DNA of 64,000 nt from Lingula anatina (lineage: Eukaryota > Animalia > Brachiopoda). Below are positions 1 through 62,846 of the stretch, one piece after another. Both the position numbers and the translations under genes were made by a program. The stretch spans positions 66,318,788 through 66,382,787 of the forward strand of contig CM120640.1 of NCBI GenBank assembly GCA_051362555.1. Reading direction: 5' to 3'. The notes under the pieces are model-generated. The model had not been told where the DNA came from, searched no databases, and saw nothing but the letters and a program-made list of their open reading frames with translations. The first letter of the stretch is position 1. Each line of letters begins with the position of its first letter.

Positions 1-41
1 TGTACATGTAACTGCCCTGATCAAGCTAAAAGTTCACTCAC

Positions 42-3000
42 TCAGGCCATGATGGTGGTACAACATGGATGTGACGCCATCAAAGCGGAAGCCATCAAAA
101 CCATACTCATCAATCCACCACCTCAGGTTGGAAAGAAGGAACTTCAGGGTTTCCCACCTAGAGCACAGAAATCAAAATAGTGTACATTAAATAAAACTTT
201 GGTCCCAAATAAAAATGGAATGTAATGAAATCATTCTGAGGTTAATGTTCCACTTTTGTTGCCATCTAATACATTTATACGTTTCCTCGCAACAATACTG
301 AAATTACTGCAATGGCTATTTTAAACAATGTTTCATGGACAATTTAAACAAACTACGCGAAACTTCATCCTCGCAACATTGTTTACATGGACATTTTACT
401 GCCTCAGAATTAAACATAATGTCCAAGTTATTTAGGCTTACTGTGCATAGTTAAAGAGCCTACTGTCCCAGAGTTCATGTCTCCCTCTGGGACCTGAGTG
501 GAAATATCCAGCCTCAGAGCCATCAAAGCTGTTCAAACCATCCACTATATTGTTAGAAGCGTGGCTGTGGACCACATCCAATAGTACTACTATGCCATAG
601 GAGTGAGCAACATCAACAAGCTCTTTCAGCTCTTCTGGAGTCCCATAACGACTGAAAGAAATATATTAGAAGGAGTCAACTTGAAGTGGGAATATTGATC
701 CGATGTACTCCCTGTACATCATAAGTTCAGGTTGAGCTAAGTAATATTCCTTTAAGTTTCAAACAGCTTTTGCCAAAAAAGATAAAACACATCTGCCCTG
801 TTTATTTGTAGGATATGAAAACTAACCTTGAAGCAGCAAAAAAGCTTGTCACTTGGTACCCAAAACTTGCATAATAAGCATGCTCCATTACTGCCATCAA
901 CTGGATAGAGTTGTAACCTATAATCAGAACAATAAATTATACTTGTGATCGAACTCAGAAAAATGCTTTTAATAAAAGCATCATAATATTTAAACTAATC
1001 TACAATTACCCTTACATTTTAATTCCTAAGCTGCCGCTCGTTCTTTCAAAAATTGAGCCCAACAAATCAGTGGCTCAGCCACAATACCATGTTAAACAAT
1101 CATCATGTCCACTCACCTAAATCTGCTATTCTTGGAATTACATTGTAGGCAAAATGCTTGTAGCTGGCAACTTTTCCCTCCCAGGATGAAATGCCAACAT
1201 GAGATTCATAGATCCTCAGTCTGTCTGGTTTTGGTGGATGTGGATGCTTGAATTTGTACTTCTGAAAGAATGTATATAAATATTTGAAGTAAAAAAAAAA
1301 AGGGTTCAAAAATTGCCAGTCTACAATGTTACAGCATAACATAGGTATACATGAAAGTAATAAGTGAGACAGTTATCATTTTCAGACATGATCAAATTAA
1401 CAAATTACCAATAGGAATTTTTGAGCATTTTAATTCTGTTAGCAAGATCATGATGAAATTTTTAAAAATAATTTTGAAGACTATTCATCCTACATGCAAA
1501 CAATTTTATTATTTCTCATTGTTCAGAATTACAATTTGTACCACTGATATTCAATCTAATCAAATAATTTGAAGAAGCGATTTTAAAAAAATTCTTAACC
1601 CCTTAAGAAACAATATAAAACTGATTCAGAAATCACAGGAAACAATGAAGAAAACGAAAAGTTAAGGTTGTTAGGGATATGGATCCATACATGTACAATT
1701 GAGATTTGGTTCACAACAACCTATGGAGATACAGGTAACATCCCAACTACTACAGACGAGCAAACAACAGCCCAACAACAGCTCTGAATGTCGAGTGTCT
1801 CTCACCTGTTCTTCAGGGGGGTCCCAGTGTATCATATCATATATGGTACTATCTGAGGGGGGTTTGACCCACCTCGCCCAGGGACACAACCTGTCGGCTA
1901 GCTCTCCACTGGGAGTTTGCACCAATAACTGACAATGAAAATCCAACATGCAACAATAATGGAAAACAAAAGAAAGAACAATTAAACTCTTTCCCACTCC
2001 TGCTGTCCAAGTGCTGCTTGCCATCTGGAGTTCCTTGTAGACCTCTGGTACAGGCATGAGTGGTTTGGAGTAAACATGCTGTTAAAGTGTTATTGTTAAG
2101 AGAAATAATACCTTGAAAATGCTCAAACAAAAAGAAAGAGGTTATAGTTATTAGCAAAATAAGACACTGCATCATTAGTAGATATCCCTTGTTACAACAA
2201 CTGATATCTAGCAATAATACAGCATTTTTTTGCATATTTCTTAAAAGAAATGTCAGTTGAAACAAAAATCAGTTATTAGTGTTGCTCCATGTAATATCAA
2301 CCTAAAAATGATACCAAAACAAAAACATGTTAATGGTTATATTTTAAATCACAAGTCTCATGCAGTAAAAAGTGGCACCTGTTCAGGAGATGGATTCCAG
2401 AACACCTGGTTGTAGGCAGTGCTGTTATTGGGTGGAACAACATATGAAGCCCAGGGACTGATTCTGTCCTCCAGCGTGTCCCCGCTGGTCACCATAACTA
2501 TCTGTTCAAGTAACCTCATCATTACTCAATAATAAACATATTATATATTGTGAAATAAAAAAATTGAAACACTGTTGACATACCTTTGTGTGTTTATGTA
2601 TTAGGCAACAGTAGTTTTTACTTATGACTATACATGTACCTAACTAATTCAACTTCATAACATGCATTAATTTGTACTCATAACCATGTTTAAAATGAAT
2701 TCTACAGAACATTTTACTATGACACTAATATACATTTTACTTTTGCTTAGCTTGTACACTCTATATTCATTTATAAAAGGATGCTTTAAACTGTATCCTC
2801 ACAGGTATGATAAAAAGGGGGAAATTGTATATGTCAACACTGCAAACTATGAACCTAATGGCCAAAATAAAAAATCCTGAAAAAAATCTGTTAACAAAAA
2901 ATTGGATAGCTAAAATTTGCAACTGTACCACAGCCACATCTTTTTTTAACAATTAGTACATATATATATATATTATACAATCATACATGTAGTCACCAAA

Positions 3001-3152
3001 TGATTATTCTGTTTAATAAAAAAATGATACTGTAAACAAAATTTGAGAGAAATCTATTCACTAGTTGACCAACACTTATAAAATAACTGGTATGTTTTTT
3101 AAACTAATATTAAACTTGTTGGATTCTAATACAACTACCTGAACCAAAATAA

Positions 3153-3233
<81 letters not shown>

Positions 3234-4568
3234 TTGTGGTACCTTGATACTACTGCCATGTGCAATTGGACTGGTGCCATCTGGCCTGGGTGGTATTTTG
3301 AGTTCCCACTTTCCATGTTCTAGTCTGGTGAATTTGTGCTCTAGCTTTTCCCAGTTATCTAAAAATCAGTGGTAGAAAATTGCTCTAAATATGACATGGT
3401 TGAGAGCCACTTATTATGTAGTTTTCTAAACTAAACTGCTCTTCTACTGGTCATCATTTTGGATAAGAGGCTCGTTGTATTTTTTGCTATACATTTTGAA
3501 ATTCAAAACATCATTAAATGTTCTTTTATTGAGGTGATAAAATATTCTCCAAAAGCAAAACATAAATGAAAAACAAATAAAACTATATCATACATGTAAC
3601 AAACAACTGAAAGTCTTACTAAAGTCTCCTCTTAGATACATGGCTTGAGCAGCTGGAGCCCATTCTCTCATCACTATTCCCCCATCCTGGGTGGGGTGGA
3701 TACCATACCACTCATAGCCTTTGCTGAAATTGCCTATACTCCCTTCAGTGCGTTCTATATTTTCCAAAGTCTTCTGAAAACAGCCATACCTAATGAAAAA
3801 GAAAACACTCTCATCAAATATAATATATTTACATAAAATATAAATCATAAAATATAAAATATTAACATACCTCAAACCATGAATTTTGCTTTACTGGTAT
3901 TAACTTAAACTTAAGCAATCAATTAAAAAAAGTTTGTTATCTTAATGCTTCATACACGACACGCAGCAGAAGATGGACACGACCAATGTAAAAGAAGACT
4001 TATGCAAATTGAGTAACTTGTTCGATAGTTAAACTCCTGGTGGTTTTTGTGGTTTCTTGGTGCATCATACTTGTATGTGGTTGACCAGGCCAACGGAACT
4101 CTTATCACTCTAACATATCTTTGGACAAAAGCATGTACATGAAAGCAAATTCTTGTGTAAAAATTTCAAGTCAAGGTATAAATATATTTTAGTTTAGTTT
4201 AAAAGCTTTGCTTATTAAAATCTCAGTTTAATTTAATTTCAGTTTAATTTAAGTGGCAATCACGTTGTGCTACTCATTTTTTTTATTATTAAACTTGATT
4301 GTCCTTATGTTCTGTCTAGAAAATGTCAGGTCACGCCAAGGCCAAGTAATCTTGGTAGTAGTATAGTACGTACAGGCAACTGGGCATGTGCATGTGCTTT
4401 GCGTGATACAATTCAAAATAAAGCAGCTTCAACTTTAATATTGAAGAGTGACATGTAATACCTTCGTCTTATCTCTCTTTCTTGTGGCTTTAGATAGCCG
4501 TCGAGCTCGAATAAAGTGTCGATTTTAGGCACTTGAATCTTCTCCGGCTCGTCTACGGTGGTCAACAT
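42..4568 (-). CDS. GBE1: 1,4-alpha-glucan (glycogen) branching enzyme, 5' part; gene continues beyond the window start
   Basis: Exons in transcript order: 4568-4462, 3789-3620, 3358-3243, [2501-2379 or 1928-1806], 1261-1117, 917-827, 651-442, 157-42; all GT-AG and phase-compatible. The translation [15 protein letters not shown]...[19 protein letters not shown]...[20 protein letters not shown]...[35 protein letters not shown]...LDVVHSH...[15 protein letters not shown] carries hallmark GH13 branching-enzyme motifs, including the catalytic Asp in FRFDG. Confidence 0.97.
1806..1928 (-). CDS. GBE1: GBE1 exon 4b (candidate mutually exclusive exon)
   Basis: 123 nt, phase 0/0, acceptor ttttcattgtcAG, donor CAG|GTGAG. 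Encodes [41 protein letters not shown], which aligns to exon 4a without gaps. Confidence 0.85.
2379..2501 (-). CDS. GBE1: GBE1 exon 4a (candidate mutually exclusive exon)
   Basis: 123 nt, phase 0/0, acceptor ttgaacAG, donor CAG|GTgcca. Encodes [41 protein letters not shown], containing the GBE-typical RISPWA motif. Confidence 0.85.
3154..3230. repeat. (TA)n microsatellite
   Basis: Pure TA run 12 nt from the GBE1 exon 3 donor, in the intron upstream of exons 4a/4b. Confidence 0.95.
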
Positions 4569-4816
4569 GTTGGTTGCCCTTCTTGAATGTCAAGAGCATC
4601 TGTAAAACTGTGTCAATAATACAGAGCCATAAGATCATTTTGTCAAAATTCTCGTGCAATATGAAAAAGATAACTGTTTCAATTCCGCTTAAAATTTTTT
4701 AACTGAATGGCGTATTTGTTTTTTTATAGATTTATTAATTTATATGCTCTCATGACACATTAGATTTATTCGAAACCTTGGCTACGCTGAAGGTGACACC
4801 GACTCAGAAATGCAAT
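4569..4816. promoter_or_regulatory. Putative bidirectional promoter shared by GBE1 and the sorting nexin
   Basis: Divergent ATGs at 4568 (-) and 4817 (+), only 248 bp apart. CpG dinucleotides are locally more frequent than in the flanking introns. Confidence 0.75.
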
Positions 4817-16891
<12,075 letters not shown>

Positions 16892-28326: not shown

Positions 28327-31102
28327 TTTTAATTTTTTTTACTGTTGATATCATTTGTGAAAATATATTCGGAATAATGAAAGAACACAAGATTCTAAAT
28401 GTTTTTCTTGAAGCAAATATTTAATTTTTTTATTGCACAATTTTTTATTATCAAGAGAAAGCTTATGACGATTAAAATGATTTTGTATGAAATCATTGTG
28501 TCCAAAAACCATACACCGTAAAAGAAGCAGTGTTAAATACAAGTGTTAATTGTTTTATACTTAAGATTTAAAGTACAAAAAAGAAATATTGATGTTGTTG
28601 TTAAGTAATTTCTTTTGATTCTGAAGTTATAACTCTTTTATAACAGTAAAAACTGTTACTGTAATGCAATTCATTTTGATTTTGAAGCCTATTCAAATAG
28701 ATCATCAATAACATACTTTAATAAACAAAATATTAAAAGCACAGCCCATCAGAAGGTATTAATGATAAGTACTTCAGCATGTAGTTAAGAATGCGTATTT
28801 TGCTGTTATCTGGTAAGGCCACCAAGATCATTCAAAATCACATAGTATTTTAGAACTTTAGGCAGAGGTAACATAGCTACCTTTGGCAATATAGGAATCT
28901 TTAACTTAGTTCTTATTGCCAGTCTACATATCTGCTGTAGAGAAGGCACACTAAGCAACAGGTCATCCAGCAAAGAGGCTGTCTGTGAACCCAAGATGGC
29001 AGTGGATAGCATCTCTCTGTCATGTTTGTCAATCTGTGCCCCGGCCAAGAGCAGCATTATTAGTGCTCTTTCATCTGCATGGGGGGCAGCTAAAATGGCG
29101 TAATGAAAAGCATTCTTACCAAGACCATTCTGCAGATTAGGGTTACAGCCAAACTGCAGGAGGTACTGCATAGATTTCAGACACCTAGCTTTGGTGGCCA
29201 GTATGAGGGGCGTGTTGCCATTACAGTCCTGAACATTAAATTCTGCTCCATTCTTCAGCAGTTGGAGAACTGCCTGTGGAAATCCATCTAGAGCAGCAAG
29301 ATGGAGGTATGTCTGCCCAGAGAGAGCCTGATGGTGCACATTAGCTCCACCTGCTATAAGCTTGTTCAACACTGCTAGATTTCTGTGAGTCAGAGCCAGA
29401 TAGATTGGCGTGTGATTTTGTGAGTTGAAGATGTTAGCATCAGCTCCTGCTTTGAGCAGCAGTTCAGTGATGTCGTCATCGCCAGTGGAAGCCATGAGGT
29501 GTAACACCGTATTTCCTCCATTATTGACTGCATTCACGTCACATCCTGCCTGTACAAGTCTCTGTACTATGTGAATGTGCCCACGTTTAGCTGCTAAGGA
29601 CAAGGCAGTGTTATGTCCTTTATCATATCCATTGAGATTTATACCAGCATCAATGAAGAGATCCACCACATGCTGATGGCCATAGTAAGCTGCTTCATGC
29701 AAAGGTTGGGACAACCAGTTATTGCTCCATTTTCTTGAAGATCGGATACTGAGGTGGTGAATTCCCCTTACGAAACTTATAGAGGCACTGTGGATGTCAC
29801 TGAACAAATGTTCTGTTGGTGTGTTTGGAGAGACTCTTTCTCCATCATCACCATCAATCTCATCATTTTCATTACTGCCACCGTCATTATGAGTGTAGCA
29901 GCCGTTCTTCAGTACATGCGACTCTGGTCCAGATCTCCTCTTTGGAAAAAGTGGTTTTGAAACAAAACCTCTTGAATTGTCTAAAACAAGTGCTGCCTCT
30001 CCTTTGCTTGACAACTGGAGGAAGATAGCAGAGTCCTGATTTGAAGAATTTGAGCTCACGCAATTCCCCATGTGAAATTTAAGATATGTCAACAAATGTT
30101 GATTCTTGAACGCATATTTCATTTCCACATTTTACCTCCATGGTGGTGCAGTTTTTTACATAAAAAATTCTGGAAAAATTCCAATCAAAACACAAATGTT
30201 ATGTTACATGTGCTATTTTCAATACATATGAGGAATACTTCCGTCATACTGCCACAATAAGAACGTTTTACATGTTGCCAGATTTTAGCATAACTACTTA
30301 CTGCAGGTTTCTCTAATTGTACATGTATTTAAAGTTATTTAATGAGCTCATGTTGAGGATTTAAAGTTCCATGTGGGTTTATATAGTACTCTTATCATGT
30401 CCCAGTTTAATGTGTGTTCAATGCACTATCTCCGTCAGCTCATTCTGTAAGGACAGGTATCTTCTCTGATGTAGTATTGCATAACTGCTGGCATACATAC
30501 CACAGGAACCCTGGGCTCTGTGTGTTCTCAGATAAGATGCATGCCTTAGCTGGCTTACACTGTGTTACTGCTCAGTGTACAGATTCACAGCTATAGTCAA
30601 TAATACTCTTATGCCTAGTCACATTCTGAATACTGTTGATTGTCTGCAAAGTCCTTAATGAAGCCTAAAGGTTAATTCCCTGGTTGAACTATGAATACCA
30701 CTTTGAATAACTTGTTTAAGTTGTGAAAGACATTTCTCTAAGTGAATCACCAGAAGTCTTCCTGGGTGACATTTTCTGACCTACAGCTATGTGCCACAGG
30801 TGACATCTTGTCCGTTGTGTAGATCATAAAAAGGGTTTTTTAATAGTTTTTGATACTTGATCTTGTTATGTGCCTGACTGGATGTAGTGCCTGGATAACT
30901 AACTGGGTCTGTACATTCATGTTCAGGGGACCGCAGAGAGATAGGTGTATTGTGTATTGTCCTCACCTATCAAATAACTATGGCAAGTTTTCTATGTTAC
31001 AACTCATTTAGATGTGCCACTGATGCACTTAAATTGTCTGACTTGTGTATTGAAGGCAGGATAATCCACTGGTTTTTTACAACTTAATATTTATATCTGT
31101 AT

Positions 31103-57664: not shown

Positions 57665-60600
57665 CCCCTTAGGTTGACATCATCTGTAATATAAAATAAA
57701 TGAACCCCAGTATAATGAAAATATTGGTCTATGTAGCTTGATCCAGCCCCTTGGGGACTTCATTGAATGTCATCAGTTTAACATATTAACATGCCTCTTC
57801 TTGTTTCCAACATATGTGTATTATCACCAGCTTTTCTGTATACTAATCAATGCCAGGAGGTGTGTTAAGCTGATTGCATTCAGTGAAAGTCCCCACGGAG
57901 TTAAATTGACCTACGTTCACAGGTAGTTATATTGGGAATGAGCCCTAATATGGCATACAGGTACCTGTCTCTCAGTTCTTCTGAGATGATTTCCAGGCTC
58001 CTGTTCTTAGTCTCTGGGACAAAGGCAAAAATAAAGGCCACTGACATGGCACATATGATACCGTACATGATAAAGGTCCAGGAAGCACCGAGCCCGTCTG
58101 AAATATAAAAATCTTAATGACCTTGTTGATTAAATCATAACATTAAGAACATTTTACAAAGAATTTGATCTTCATTTTTTTCTTTATGAAATCCAAAGGG
58201 CACTACATGTAATGTGCTTAGATACCCATTACTGCATCGAAAGAGTATTCTAATGTTCCAATAAATAATTAATTGATTAATATGTTTTCCATCAGGAGTG
58301 CTTCCCTACAGAGGCTCTCACCAGTTCACCTCTATCTGGGTCACAGAGAGACTGTTCTCTATATATATTCAGATATATATATATTTTTTCTCTGGCTATT
58401 TGCTAGGTGCATGTTTACTATCTACCTCTAATATGTTAGCTGTTACTAATTTATATATTATGTTTTTTATACAATTTTGTAACAGCTTGAACACCTGTGG
58501 GAGAGAATATACTAGTTGTTTACATTTTTGTACTGTGAGAGCAAGGGAAACATGGTTAGTAACTGAAGAAAATGTATGTTAGACTTTCTCATGACCAACA
58601 TACTCCTAATTTGTGAGCAAAGAGTGCAGCTTGTGAAGCTGAGACATACATGTAAGACTGTGTATATATGGAAGGTACCTTAAAAATAACTAAATTGCTG
58701 AAGAAGTTTCTTAAATGATGAGGCATGGCTCTAAGAGAGCATGCCTCCACACTCCACTCAGAAATTTCACTCCACCTCAACTGAGTCCATTAAAATAACC
58801 ACTGGCCTGGTAGTCAAGGCCATGTAACATATTTATTTCACAATAAGGGAAAGCGCTATCTTGTTCTAAATTGGTCCCAGGTGAATAAAGTATATTTTCA
58901 TACAGTAACTGTAAGAGGTGCCTTCAACATGATTTATTTGACAATGACATGTTCAAATGACCAATTGCTATCTTGTGCTACCTGTACCTGTGAATGACAA
59001 ATTCAAAAGATTCATGGTCTACAGGAATTAAGTGACATTATCATTCATGAGTGCTGACAGGGTAAAGAGGAGTCTTAGTGATATTAACATATGAAGAGGA
59101 AACTTCTCCTTAAGTCTGCTGCGCACAGACCTCATTTTAGTAATGAAAATGTTCCAGTGTGTACAGCCATGAACCCAGAATCCTAGGCATCAAAGGTAAA
59201 CCAATCACCTTTTCAAATGCTTGATATATCATTCATTAATACAACAGCATGTACTCTTATACCTCAATTAATTATGTACTAACATATTCCGCAGTCTGAA
59301 ACCTAATCTTTTCAGGAAATCATTTCCATCATAAAAATTTTAACTCTCATTAAACAGGACAAGACTAATCACGACAAGTTTCTATACTTTTTCAAGAGTG
59401 TACTCCCGTTATTTTTTTTTATACATAATTAGATGTATGCTTTTTACAGACTGTAGTTAAAATTACCAAAGCCCAGAGAAAACTGCTGACAACACATGCC
59501 TCAAGACTTCAGTAAGAAGACATATGGGTGTGGATTTGATATGTACAGTAAAGAGATGGGTTAACAACATGTACAATACTATTTTTTATCTTCTTTCAAG
59601 ATCAACAAGATGTCACTCAACTTGTCTGAATATGGGGGACACGGTGACACATTCACTGGTGACAACATCACTAATGACAGCAGCCTGAGCCCAGTCCGTG
59701 CTTGGGACATTCCATGGGACAGTCCTGCAGGGATAGCCTTGATAGTGGCACTCTCCATATCAGTTTGGTGCCTCATAGTGCGCATCATTTTCCAACCATT
59801 TGTTAAAGTGTATCACACTCTTCCTGGGAAAATTCACTTTTGTTTGGTGGTTGCTCAATGTTTAGTGAAGGTTACATTTAGCATGAGGCCTCTTTTTCTA
59901 GGAAATCCTGTTCACTGCATGATATTTGGTAATGTGGTTATGTGGGAGTTCCTATCCACCTTTTTCTGGATGAATGGACTTGCTCTGCATACTTTCAAAA
60001 CATTTGGGCCCAATGCACCTACGAGTAAGGCTACCAAAAGACAGGAATGCAGACGTCTGGGATTTATCTTCGCTTACGCCACACTGTCACCAACAGTAAT
60101 AATGTCCCTGGTCATTCTGATGGAAAACTTAGATATTGATGAAAAATTCAAACCTGGATTTCACAATACAAACTGTTGGTTTCCCCAACCTTTAAACTTT
60201 GTTATTTACACCATGACACCAGGAGGGATTCTCATTTTAATTAATCTTTTCCTTTTCCTCATTACAACCAAACGCATCAGCAAAACAATGAAGTTATCCA
60301 ACTACATAAAAACATCAAAGGAGAAAAGTGAACGTGCAATTTTTATGAAACTTTTCATCATGATTGGACTTAACTGGATATTGTGGTTCATTCATGGACT
60401 GGTTAGTTTTCTTACTGGAATAGAGGTTCTTTTCTATATATTCATTATCATGGCTGGTTTAGATGGAATATGGGTGTTCATAGTTACAGTCTGTACAAAA
60501 AGAGTGTGGAATGAATTGCGACATTCTATAACAACGAGAAAAACTGGTGAGCAAAATCGTGCAACAAACACCCCAAAGGCACCAACTGGGCATAACAATT

Positions 60601-60743
60601 CCAACAGTAGTGATAAGATTGACAAAACTACTTTAACAGACACAGACATTAGCTGTACTCATCTTTAACTTTTTCCGATTTACTTCAATGATGGAAACCA
60701 TCACCTAATTAAGCTCAATTGTTATTCTGATATCTAAAAACTT

Positions 60744-60788
<45 letters not shown>

Positions 60789-62846
60789 CCTAGTATGTCA
60801 CTCTGTGCAAAATTTCATATTTGTTATCTCTGAAAGAAAATGTAATAGAGATCATTTCTCTTTTTCACAAAAAGCAACCAATGATTCATTTTACCATTTA
60901 GTATGTACATGTAAATTTATGTTGGGGAAGTTTTCTATTTTTTCCTTACTTCATTCCTCTAATATATAACCAACATAATTTCAATAAATCTGAATCTTTT
61001 TTCTTTAACTACTTTATCACTTCATCTTCTTTTATTAATGGTCTGTATTAAGACATTGAAAAGGTGTAGGTCAATTGTTCATCTGTAGCAAAACTTATCC
61101 AGTTTTCATACTGATAGCGTATAACTTAAATTCGCCCTGCTTTAAATGCACCATTTGTAAAAAATAACATATTAATTAACATCATGTACTAGGGCACATA
61201 ATGGCAAGCGATGGCCAAATTTGATCTTCCGAATATTTTTGAGTTTCATCATCTCAAAAATAGCTAAAATGGCAGATAACTTTGCTAACCATCACTGATA
61301 AGGGTCCATAACATTGAGCTCAGTTATATCCATAAGACCTCACAATGAATTTTAGAGGTCTGAAAACCCCTGGGTCATGATGGTCACAAGTTGTGTAAAT
61401 TTTTGCAGCTTAATTTTGCATTTATTGAACAGGAAATATCAATAAGGAAATATCAGTAGAAGCAGTCAATTGTATTCACCTGCTTTTAAGAAAATATTCA
61501 ACACAATCACATTGCAATTTATTATCAAATGTGTTCAAAATGATTTTAATTTGCTTGAATATGGTTTAACATATAGCTTTAATATTGAAGTGTGATAAAT
61601 ACATGTCCCAAATTCATACATATAACATACTTACTCATGATGTCTAGGAAAGTGAGAGAAATGATCACATTGCTTCCCCAGTTCATGACTGTGGCAAATG
61701 CTATTGCACGCCCCTTTATAGAAGAAGGGAATATCTCACTCAGGACTAGCCAAGTCACTAAAACAACAACAACAACAATGATAATATTGGTAATACCGAT
61801 ACAAATCAAATAAGAGTCATGTGAATTTTGCAGGCTTTATAGAAATACTGCACTATGAAACAATTCTACTCACAGTAGATAATCTTAAATATGCCATCAC
61901 TGCTACTCAACTGCTTGAATTATACATTTTGAACAACTGCTAAAATCTTATTTTGTTTATGTTTTATTCCAAGATTTGCTTAATCTATAAAATTATTCAA
62001 ACAGATATCTTTTGTAATATAATTATGCTTCTTTCTTTCCTTATTAATTCAATTCTGCTAATTTTGCTATGGTAAAAAAATCTAGTCACAGAAATGATAA
62101 ATAACCCACAGCATATTCCCTGACTGTCTAGTGTAACTTAAGTTGATCACTCTACCTGGTCCAAATCCCACTGCAAATGCTGCTACATATACCATCAATG
62201 CTACCATAGACAGCCATTTGGTCCAAGGGGAAACATTCCACTCTGGAGCATCCACTGTCCTGTTTTTCTCTACACTCAATGTGTCAGCTGAGTTAAACAG
62301 TACTGTAGAATTAGTCTTACCACTTGTGTTATTGTCATCATATATCACATCAACCCCCATGACTAAAGGTGGGTAATTACTTCCTGATGAGTTCATGTCC
62401 CGTCTCTCTCGCTGTGCTGGTATATGTGTTGTTGAGACTGGAAAAATGTCAAAACCAGCTGCAAAAGCTGGAGATTGGCTGGAGAGATTCCCTATCTCAG
62501 GTCCAGCTCCACTGGTCACTGGTTCACAGCCCTGGTACCTGGACACCCCTGGACTGGTCAGGTTTTGATTTTGGCACGGACGGACATCTCTATGAGGCAA
62601 GGAGAGAGTGCCTACACCCAGCAGAAATATGCTAATTCCCATACAGCAGCCACCAAACATGAGGAAGGTCCTCCTTCCTGTCCTGTCAACAGAGAGCAGG
62701 GCACACACAGTGGCCAGGACCTGGAAGGGGACATCACTAATAGTAGTAGTAGTAGTAGTAGTTTAGTACACCAAGGCAACATAACATTTAAAGGTAAAAA
62801 GTAAAATAGCACAATTTTTAAGTACAAAGAACCAATTCACTTTCTA

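Follow-up and report, generated by a model that had tools for sequence, protein, structure and literature searches.

The window analysed here, a stretch of 64,000 nucleotides from contig CM120640.1 of the brachiopod Lingula anatina (assembly GCA_051362555.1, positions 66,318,788 to 66,382,787), opens within a minus-strand gene whose product carries the Pfam domains CBM_48, Alpha-amylase and Alpha-amylase_C and is matched by Foldseek to human GBE1, the glycogen branching enzyme (4BZY, E 1e-98). The protein possesses the CBM48 module, GH13 barrel, C-terminal beta domain and high identity to human GBE1 that mark branching enzymes of GH13 subfamily 8, and its domain order and fold are those of the human (4BZY, 5CLT) and rice BEI (3AMK, 7ML5) enzymes. 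Exon 1 (coding part 4462..4568, from M1 to the split codon of R36) was read against proteins P0001 and P0002, and exon 2 (3620..3789) against P0001. Exon 3 (3243..3358) ends in phase 0 after the residues SSIK, with the donor AAG/GTACCA, and exon 5 lies at 1117..1261. RNA-seq junctions and loose ends place exons 6 (828-917), 7 (443-651) and 8 (about 41-157) within 41..917, also on the minus strand, from where the gene extends past the start of the window. Starting 12 nt past the donor of exon 3, a (TA)n run extends over some 78 nt (3154-3231). Farther along the window are a 441-codon open frame encoding ankyrin repeats and a SOCS box (28806-30131, minus strand), an open frame matching a secretin-family seven-transmembrane receptor (59565-60668, plus strand) and another matching a sugar transporter (62082-62762, minus strand).

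Between exons 3 and 5 lie two versions of exon 4, namely 4a (2379..2501) and 4b (1806..1928), separated by an intron of 450 nt (1929-2378). Each is 123 nt long, in phase 0, free of stop codons, and bounded by AG upstream and GT downstream, and the coordinates, splice sites and translations agree with those first described from the sequence alone. The two copies align without gaps, with identity at 17 of 41 amino acids (BLASTP E 1e-13) and 63 of 123 nucleotides, distributed over the three codon positions as 20, 28 and 15 of 41. When used as a query, the 4a peptide matches one protein at 100%, the L. anatina branching enzyme isoform X2, and no homolog was found with the 4b peptide alone. The corresponding RefSeq cluster has two members of 689 residues each, isoform X1 with 4b and isoform X2 with 4a (residues 132-172 in both), which differ at 24 residues inside exon 4 and at none of the 648 outside it. 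Thus the event is already annotated there, as an automatic prediction.

Use of the two exons was followed in eight of the nine RNA-seq runs under the species label, with 6-30% of each run read and mapped to positions 1-3140 of the window at a likeness of 95 for four runs and 90 for the other four. A junction was listed when a run held 3 reads from 2 starts, and the read counts include possible duplicates. Over all eight runs, exon 5 is joined to 4a (junction 1261-2379) by 33 reads and to 4b (junction 1261-1806) by 109. The counts for 4a and 4b are, respectively, 5 and 8 in run X1, 7 and 4 in run X2, 11 and 11 in run X4, and 10 and 3 in run X5, where the three 4b reads have one common start; they are 0 and 12 in run X6, 0 and 25 in run X7, 0 and 21 in run X8, and 0 and 25 in run X9. 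Exon 4b is therefore used in 8/8 runs, and 4a in 4/8, where it makes up about half of the junction reads. Depth on 4a is a trace in run X8 and nil in runs X6, X7 and X9.

Exon 3 lies outside the mapped stretch, and its joining was read from the letters of loose ends, which carry the 3' end of exon 3 on both copies: on 4a in runs X1 (5), X2 (4), X4 (9) and X5 (6), and on 4b in runs X4 (8), X5 (12), X6 (5), X7 (18), X8 (22) and X9 (27), with none listed on 4b in X1 or X2. At the threshold of 3 reads, none of the eight runs lists a junction of 4a to 4b, and none lists the exon-3 loose end on exon 5 that would mark a form lacking both. Because the threshold applies to each run, double inclusion could reach about 8 reads, as compared to 33 reads joining 4a to 5, in the four runs that use 4a. 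The use of 4a is heterogeneous between runs (chi-square p 7e-12) and differs within a single study, P2 (runs X4 and X5 against X6, Fisher p 4e-4). The junction count that the sequence-only reading had proposed thus upholds its suggestion of mutually exclusive splicing, and adds that the choice depends on the sample. The exon pair in GBE1 of this brachiopod is real, mutually exclusive and dependent on the sample, and it is very probably a regulated one.

Two passive ways of enforcing exclusivity were considered. Steric block is unlikely because some 395 nt separate the 4a donor from the likely branch point, the last upstream AG being about 58 nt before 4b with UUUAAU just after it. Nonsense-mediated decay is an unlikely enforcer, as double inclusion and double skipping both stay in frame. 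Together these points argue for an active choice between the exons, as had been reasoned earlier from the in-frame double inclusion.

The splice sites of the two copies are of unequal strength. Pyrimidine content of the acceptor is 44% for 4a, the lowest of eight, and 62% for 4b, the seven acceptors other than that of 4a spanning 62-75%, and the donors score 5/9 for 4a and 7/9 for 4b; the donor of exon 3 is as weak as that of 4a. The stronger sites of 4b fit with its use in all runs. The introns after exon 3 and 4a start alike, with the weak donors GTACCAC and GTGCCAC, and the donor of 4b reads GTGAGAG.

The introns flanking the pair also hold four copies of the RBFOX-type motif UGCAUG, all read on the minus strand. 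One starts 15 nt after the 4a donor (2359..2364) and is a predicted activator of 4a, and a second, 24 nt before the 4b acceptor and within its pyrimidine tract (1947..1952), is a predicted repressor of 4b; these are the positions expected from the reported rule that downstream binding of RBFOX leads to inclusion of an exon and upstream binding to skipping (PMC5840707). The two distal copies, 165 nt before 4a (2661..2666) and 308 nt after 4b (1493..1498), are at positions that predict the opposite effect and do not suit a simple switch. Four copies in the three flanking introns compare with 0.66 expected (p 0.005), and the motif is absent from five other introns, two of which were bounded 11-20 nt short, with the omitted bases motif-free. 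UGCAUG ranks 12th of 1078 hexamers, and p is 0.03 when the middle intron is compared with its dinucleotide shuffles.

A second candidate element is a predicted stem that would enclose 4b, with its 5' arm at 1999..2027 and a UG-rich 3' arm at 1753..1782, from 24 nt after the 4b donor (minus strand). Its predicted energy is -28.0 kcal/mol, and two sets of 100 shuffles average -20.2 (p 0.01) and -21.1 (p 0.02); among six exons tested, only 4b has a stem that exceeds shuffles. The whole fold of the region has a z of -3.1, with 3 of 200 shuffles as good, and about a third of the core pairs are G-U. No convincing competing selector was found for the stem, the next best partner by raw energy lying in exon 4a (-26.4 versus -36.2 kcal/mol). 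Pairings of intron 3 against shuffles give 0.12 with the middle intron and 0.04 with the downstream intron (25 shuffles, run at a coarser step), a hairpin at the 4a acceptor does not exceed shuffles (z 0.01), and there is no Rfam match in positions 1-5000 of the window. The motif and stem statistics are post hoc, were picked among several tried, and come from one species.

These features suggest an explanation, to which a probability of roughly 0.75 is assigned, in which each mRNA contains 4a or 4b and the choice is made by a cell-type-specific factor, probably RBFOX, aided by the predicted stem around 4b. Exon 4b would be the default owing to its stronger splice sites. Wherever a cell contains the factor, its binding immediately downstream of 4a would favour that exon, and 4b would be masked by binding in its pyrimidine tract together with stem closure, a single event thus achieving both ends. 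Homologous exon pairs with UGCAUG in their flanking introns have been described in Mef2D (alpha1/alpha2) and in the C. elegans genes egl-15 (5B/5A) and unc-32 (7a/7b) (PMC5840707, PMC4165533); the Lingula pair differs from these RBFOX-controlled cases in that a single 450-nt intron contains the predicted activator site and the predicted repressor site alike, and in that its regulation is a prediction. Similarly, a stem between the middle and downstream introns that loops out the second exon, as predicted for Lingula, is reported for 14-3-3zeta, Mhc and MRP1 (PMC6071210). Unlike in those docker-selector clusters, a second selector that is conserved or plainly in competition was not found at the Lingula locus, and the stem there is a single-species prediction.

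That the switch itself consists of RBFOX, the stem, or both falls a little short of an even bet. Exclusivity could equally be reached by another route, through other factors, motifs of the QKI or CELF type being present, or according to stage or sex rather than tissue, with the UGCAUG copies and the stem present by chance, and this has close to an even prospect of being correct. The middle intron has two copies of the motif ACUAAY, the 3' arm of the stem is UG-rich, exon clusters of C. elegans are reported to rely on varied factors (PMC4165533), and the modest, post hoc statistics also leave room for chance. Against such a route, both proximal UGCAUG copies are placed so that, by the positional rule, 4a would be switched on and 4b off at once, and the stem has the downstream-docker geometry of 14-3-3zeta, Mhc and MRP1.

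What the exchange of exons does to the enzyme is a separate question. By alignment, exon 4 corresponds to residues 144-182 of human GBE1, the end of the CBM48 module (residues 76-183; PMC4581599). The residues reported for the human sugar-binding cleft, the acarbose site (N62, E63, W91, P93, Y119, G120, K121, W332, E333 and R336; PMC4581599), all lie outside exon 4. Of the two isoform differences suggested by the sequence-only reading, altered glycogen binding therefore lacks support as far as that site is concerned, and chain transfer is the stronger lead. In rice BEI, the modelled groove for the donor chain is lined by loop 146-156, whose replacement alone left 31% of activity; when loop 525-553 was replaced as well, the preferred chain length changed from 11-12 units to 6-7, and the point mutants G152W and D147A retained 6% and 52% of activity, respectively (PMC8695356). 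The rice loop 146-156 aligns to Lingula residues 154-162, PPNNSTAYN in 4a and PPSDSTIYD in 4b, which are identical at five of nine positions. The partner loop, equivalent to rice 525-553, is constitutive in Lingula and is not swapped; the plant BEI and BEII isoforms, by comparison, are separate and differ in two loops (PMC8695356), one of which is exchanged in Lingula.

AlphaFold2 models of the two isoforms have mean pLDDT values of 87 and 86, with 90-94 over residues 131-150 and 161-170 and 78-79 in the loop in both, and share the strands 129-135, 141-144 and 162-164; the 4a model matches the human GBE1 and rice BEI structures with TM scores of 0.89-0.93. The copies differ most in the hairpin at 132-143, where three of twelve residues are identical. 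The exchange would thus alter the last hairpin of CBM48 as well as the loop flanking the donor-chain groove, and may thereby tune activity, stability or branch length to a modest extent. Such modest tuning is likelier than a transformation of glycogen handling, and a switch of branch length by the exon swap is possible. The chance that the two predicted isoforms differ measurably as enzymes is put at even.

It may also be that the exons are exclusive and regulated, as proposed above, and the two enzymes are functionally equivalent, a partition of expression without new function, in which both copies persist because each is the sole copy used in some cells. This reading is a serious one, though it stands somewhat below even. 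The 41% identity between 4a and 4b is unexceptional beside that of similarly distant exon 4 orthologs (mean 45%, sd 9%), 39% of 5533 ortholog pairs being at or below 41.5% exon 4 identity, and the positions that match rice G152 and D147 are the same in both copies; the position of the acarbose-site residues outside the exon is also as equivalence would have it. Equivalence is less easily reconciled with W151 in 4b and N162 in 4a, each found in 0 of 117 homologs and lying at or in the loop region, or with the duplicated-exon swaps of human KHK, PKM and PFKP, which are reported at or adjoining ligand sites (PMC9741552). Those swaps, and that of ACOX1, resemble the Lingula pair in that equal-length homologous exons are exchanged near a functional site with the core kept (PMC9741552); their effects are known or predicted, whereas the Lingula pair is known from sequence and reads in one species.

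The most far-reaching version of the preferred explanation, in which RBFOX and the stem switch a donor-chain-loop exon, giving two branch-length specificities from one gene and a glycogen architecture that differs between tissues, is improbable when all its parts are taken together. If the branch-length switch were true, splicing would do in an animal what the BEI/BEII split does in plants. The determinants of donor-chain length in animal branching enzymes have been described as poorly understood (PMC4581599), and a natural enzyme pair that differs by 24 residues, at the end of CBM48 and in the donor-groove loop, offers a ready experiment on them, just as the locus offers a compact candidate splicing switch for testing in a brachiopod.

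Both copies bear marks of selection. Of nine variants listed in the two exons, eight are synonymous, including four of five within 4a, and the exception, S169P in 4a, yields the residue carried by 93 of 117 homologs. Between the copies pN is 0.41 and pS is 0.78, which is saturated and therefore indicates that the duplication is old. R144, P147, W148, W166 and P168, present in 116-117 of 117 homologs, are kept in 4a and 4b alike. Purifying selection on both exons is thus supported, as had been surmised from their conserved length and frame. The three P3 runs (X7-X9) show many more exonic variants over window positions 1-3140 than the P1 and P2 runs, some of them fixed, which suggests that the species label also covers a divergent population. 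That 4a use merely reflects a genetic or population difference, or that 4a is an artefact of assembly or a copy in decay, is very unlikely. In favour of such readings, these variant-rich runs lack a listed 4a junction, and 4a departs from the family consensus at several sites (D139, N162 and S169). Against them, 4a is absent from the junctions of run X6 but used in X4 and X5, which belong to one study with it; mapping at a likeness of 90 gave only trace 4a depth in run X8 and nothing in X6 or X9; single runs express several alleles of 4a; the listed 4a variants are mostly synonymous; and reads connect both copies alike to exons 3 and 5.

The pair is probably restricted to its lineage. Exons 4a and 4b share residues that are rare elsewhere (P154 in about 5% and T159 in about 3% of 117 homologs), which is compatible with the duplication having arisen within the lineage; a tree built from the exon alone (53 rows), which has no power, places them apart without support, and their joint grouping is not rejected (AU p 0.51). 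The homolog search covered the best 120 of 7991 hits, among which no other named brachiopod or phoronid appeared, and no second species with the pair was found there. Twenty other animal clusters were opened, from molluscs, amphioxus, decapods, horseshoe crabs and further assemblies, with at least 110 members listed, of which three under 150 residues were dropped and two lacked the region. At the protein level, none of the listed members forms a pair with differences confined to exon 4. Unlike Lingula, the other animal GBE1 proteins examined, those of vertebrates included, each have a single version of the segment. A search of literature listings, drawn mainly from outside the subscription journals, turned up no account of mutually exclusive exons in a glycogen branching enzyme. 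The supposition that the event was undescribed for GBE1 therefore holds for the literature searched and fails for RefSeq, where both isoforms were already present: the Lingula GBE1 case is new, the splicing class is well known (PMC9741552, PMC4165533), duplicated exclusive exons being common as a class, and both products are in automatic annotation.

A different arrangement is seen in decapods, where GBE1 of Cherax, three Penaeus species and Panulirus comes in two isoforms, with 699 and 690 residues (P0089/P0196, P0195/P0191, P0197/P0199, P0202/P0198 and P0205/P0121) that differ by an insert of nine residues. The insert falls where exons 3 and 4 meet in Lingula and resembles the nine residues that follow it, which suggests an independent partial duplication, probably with alternative splicing, at the same spot.
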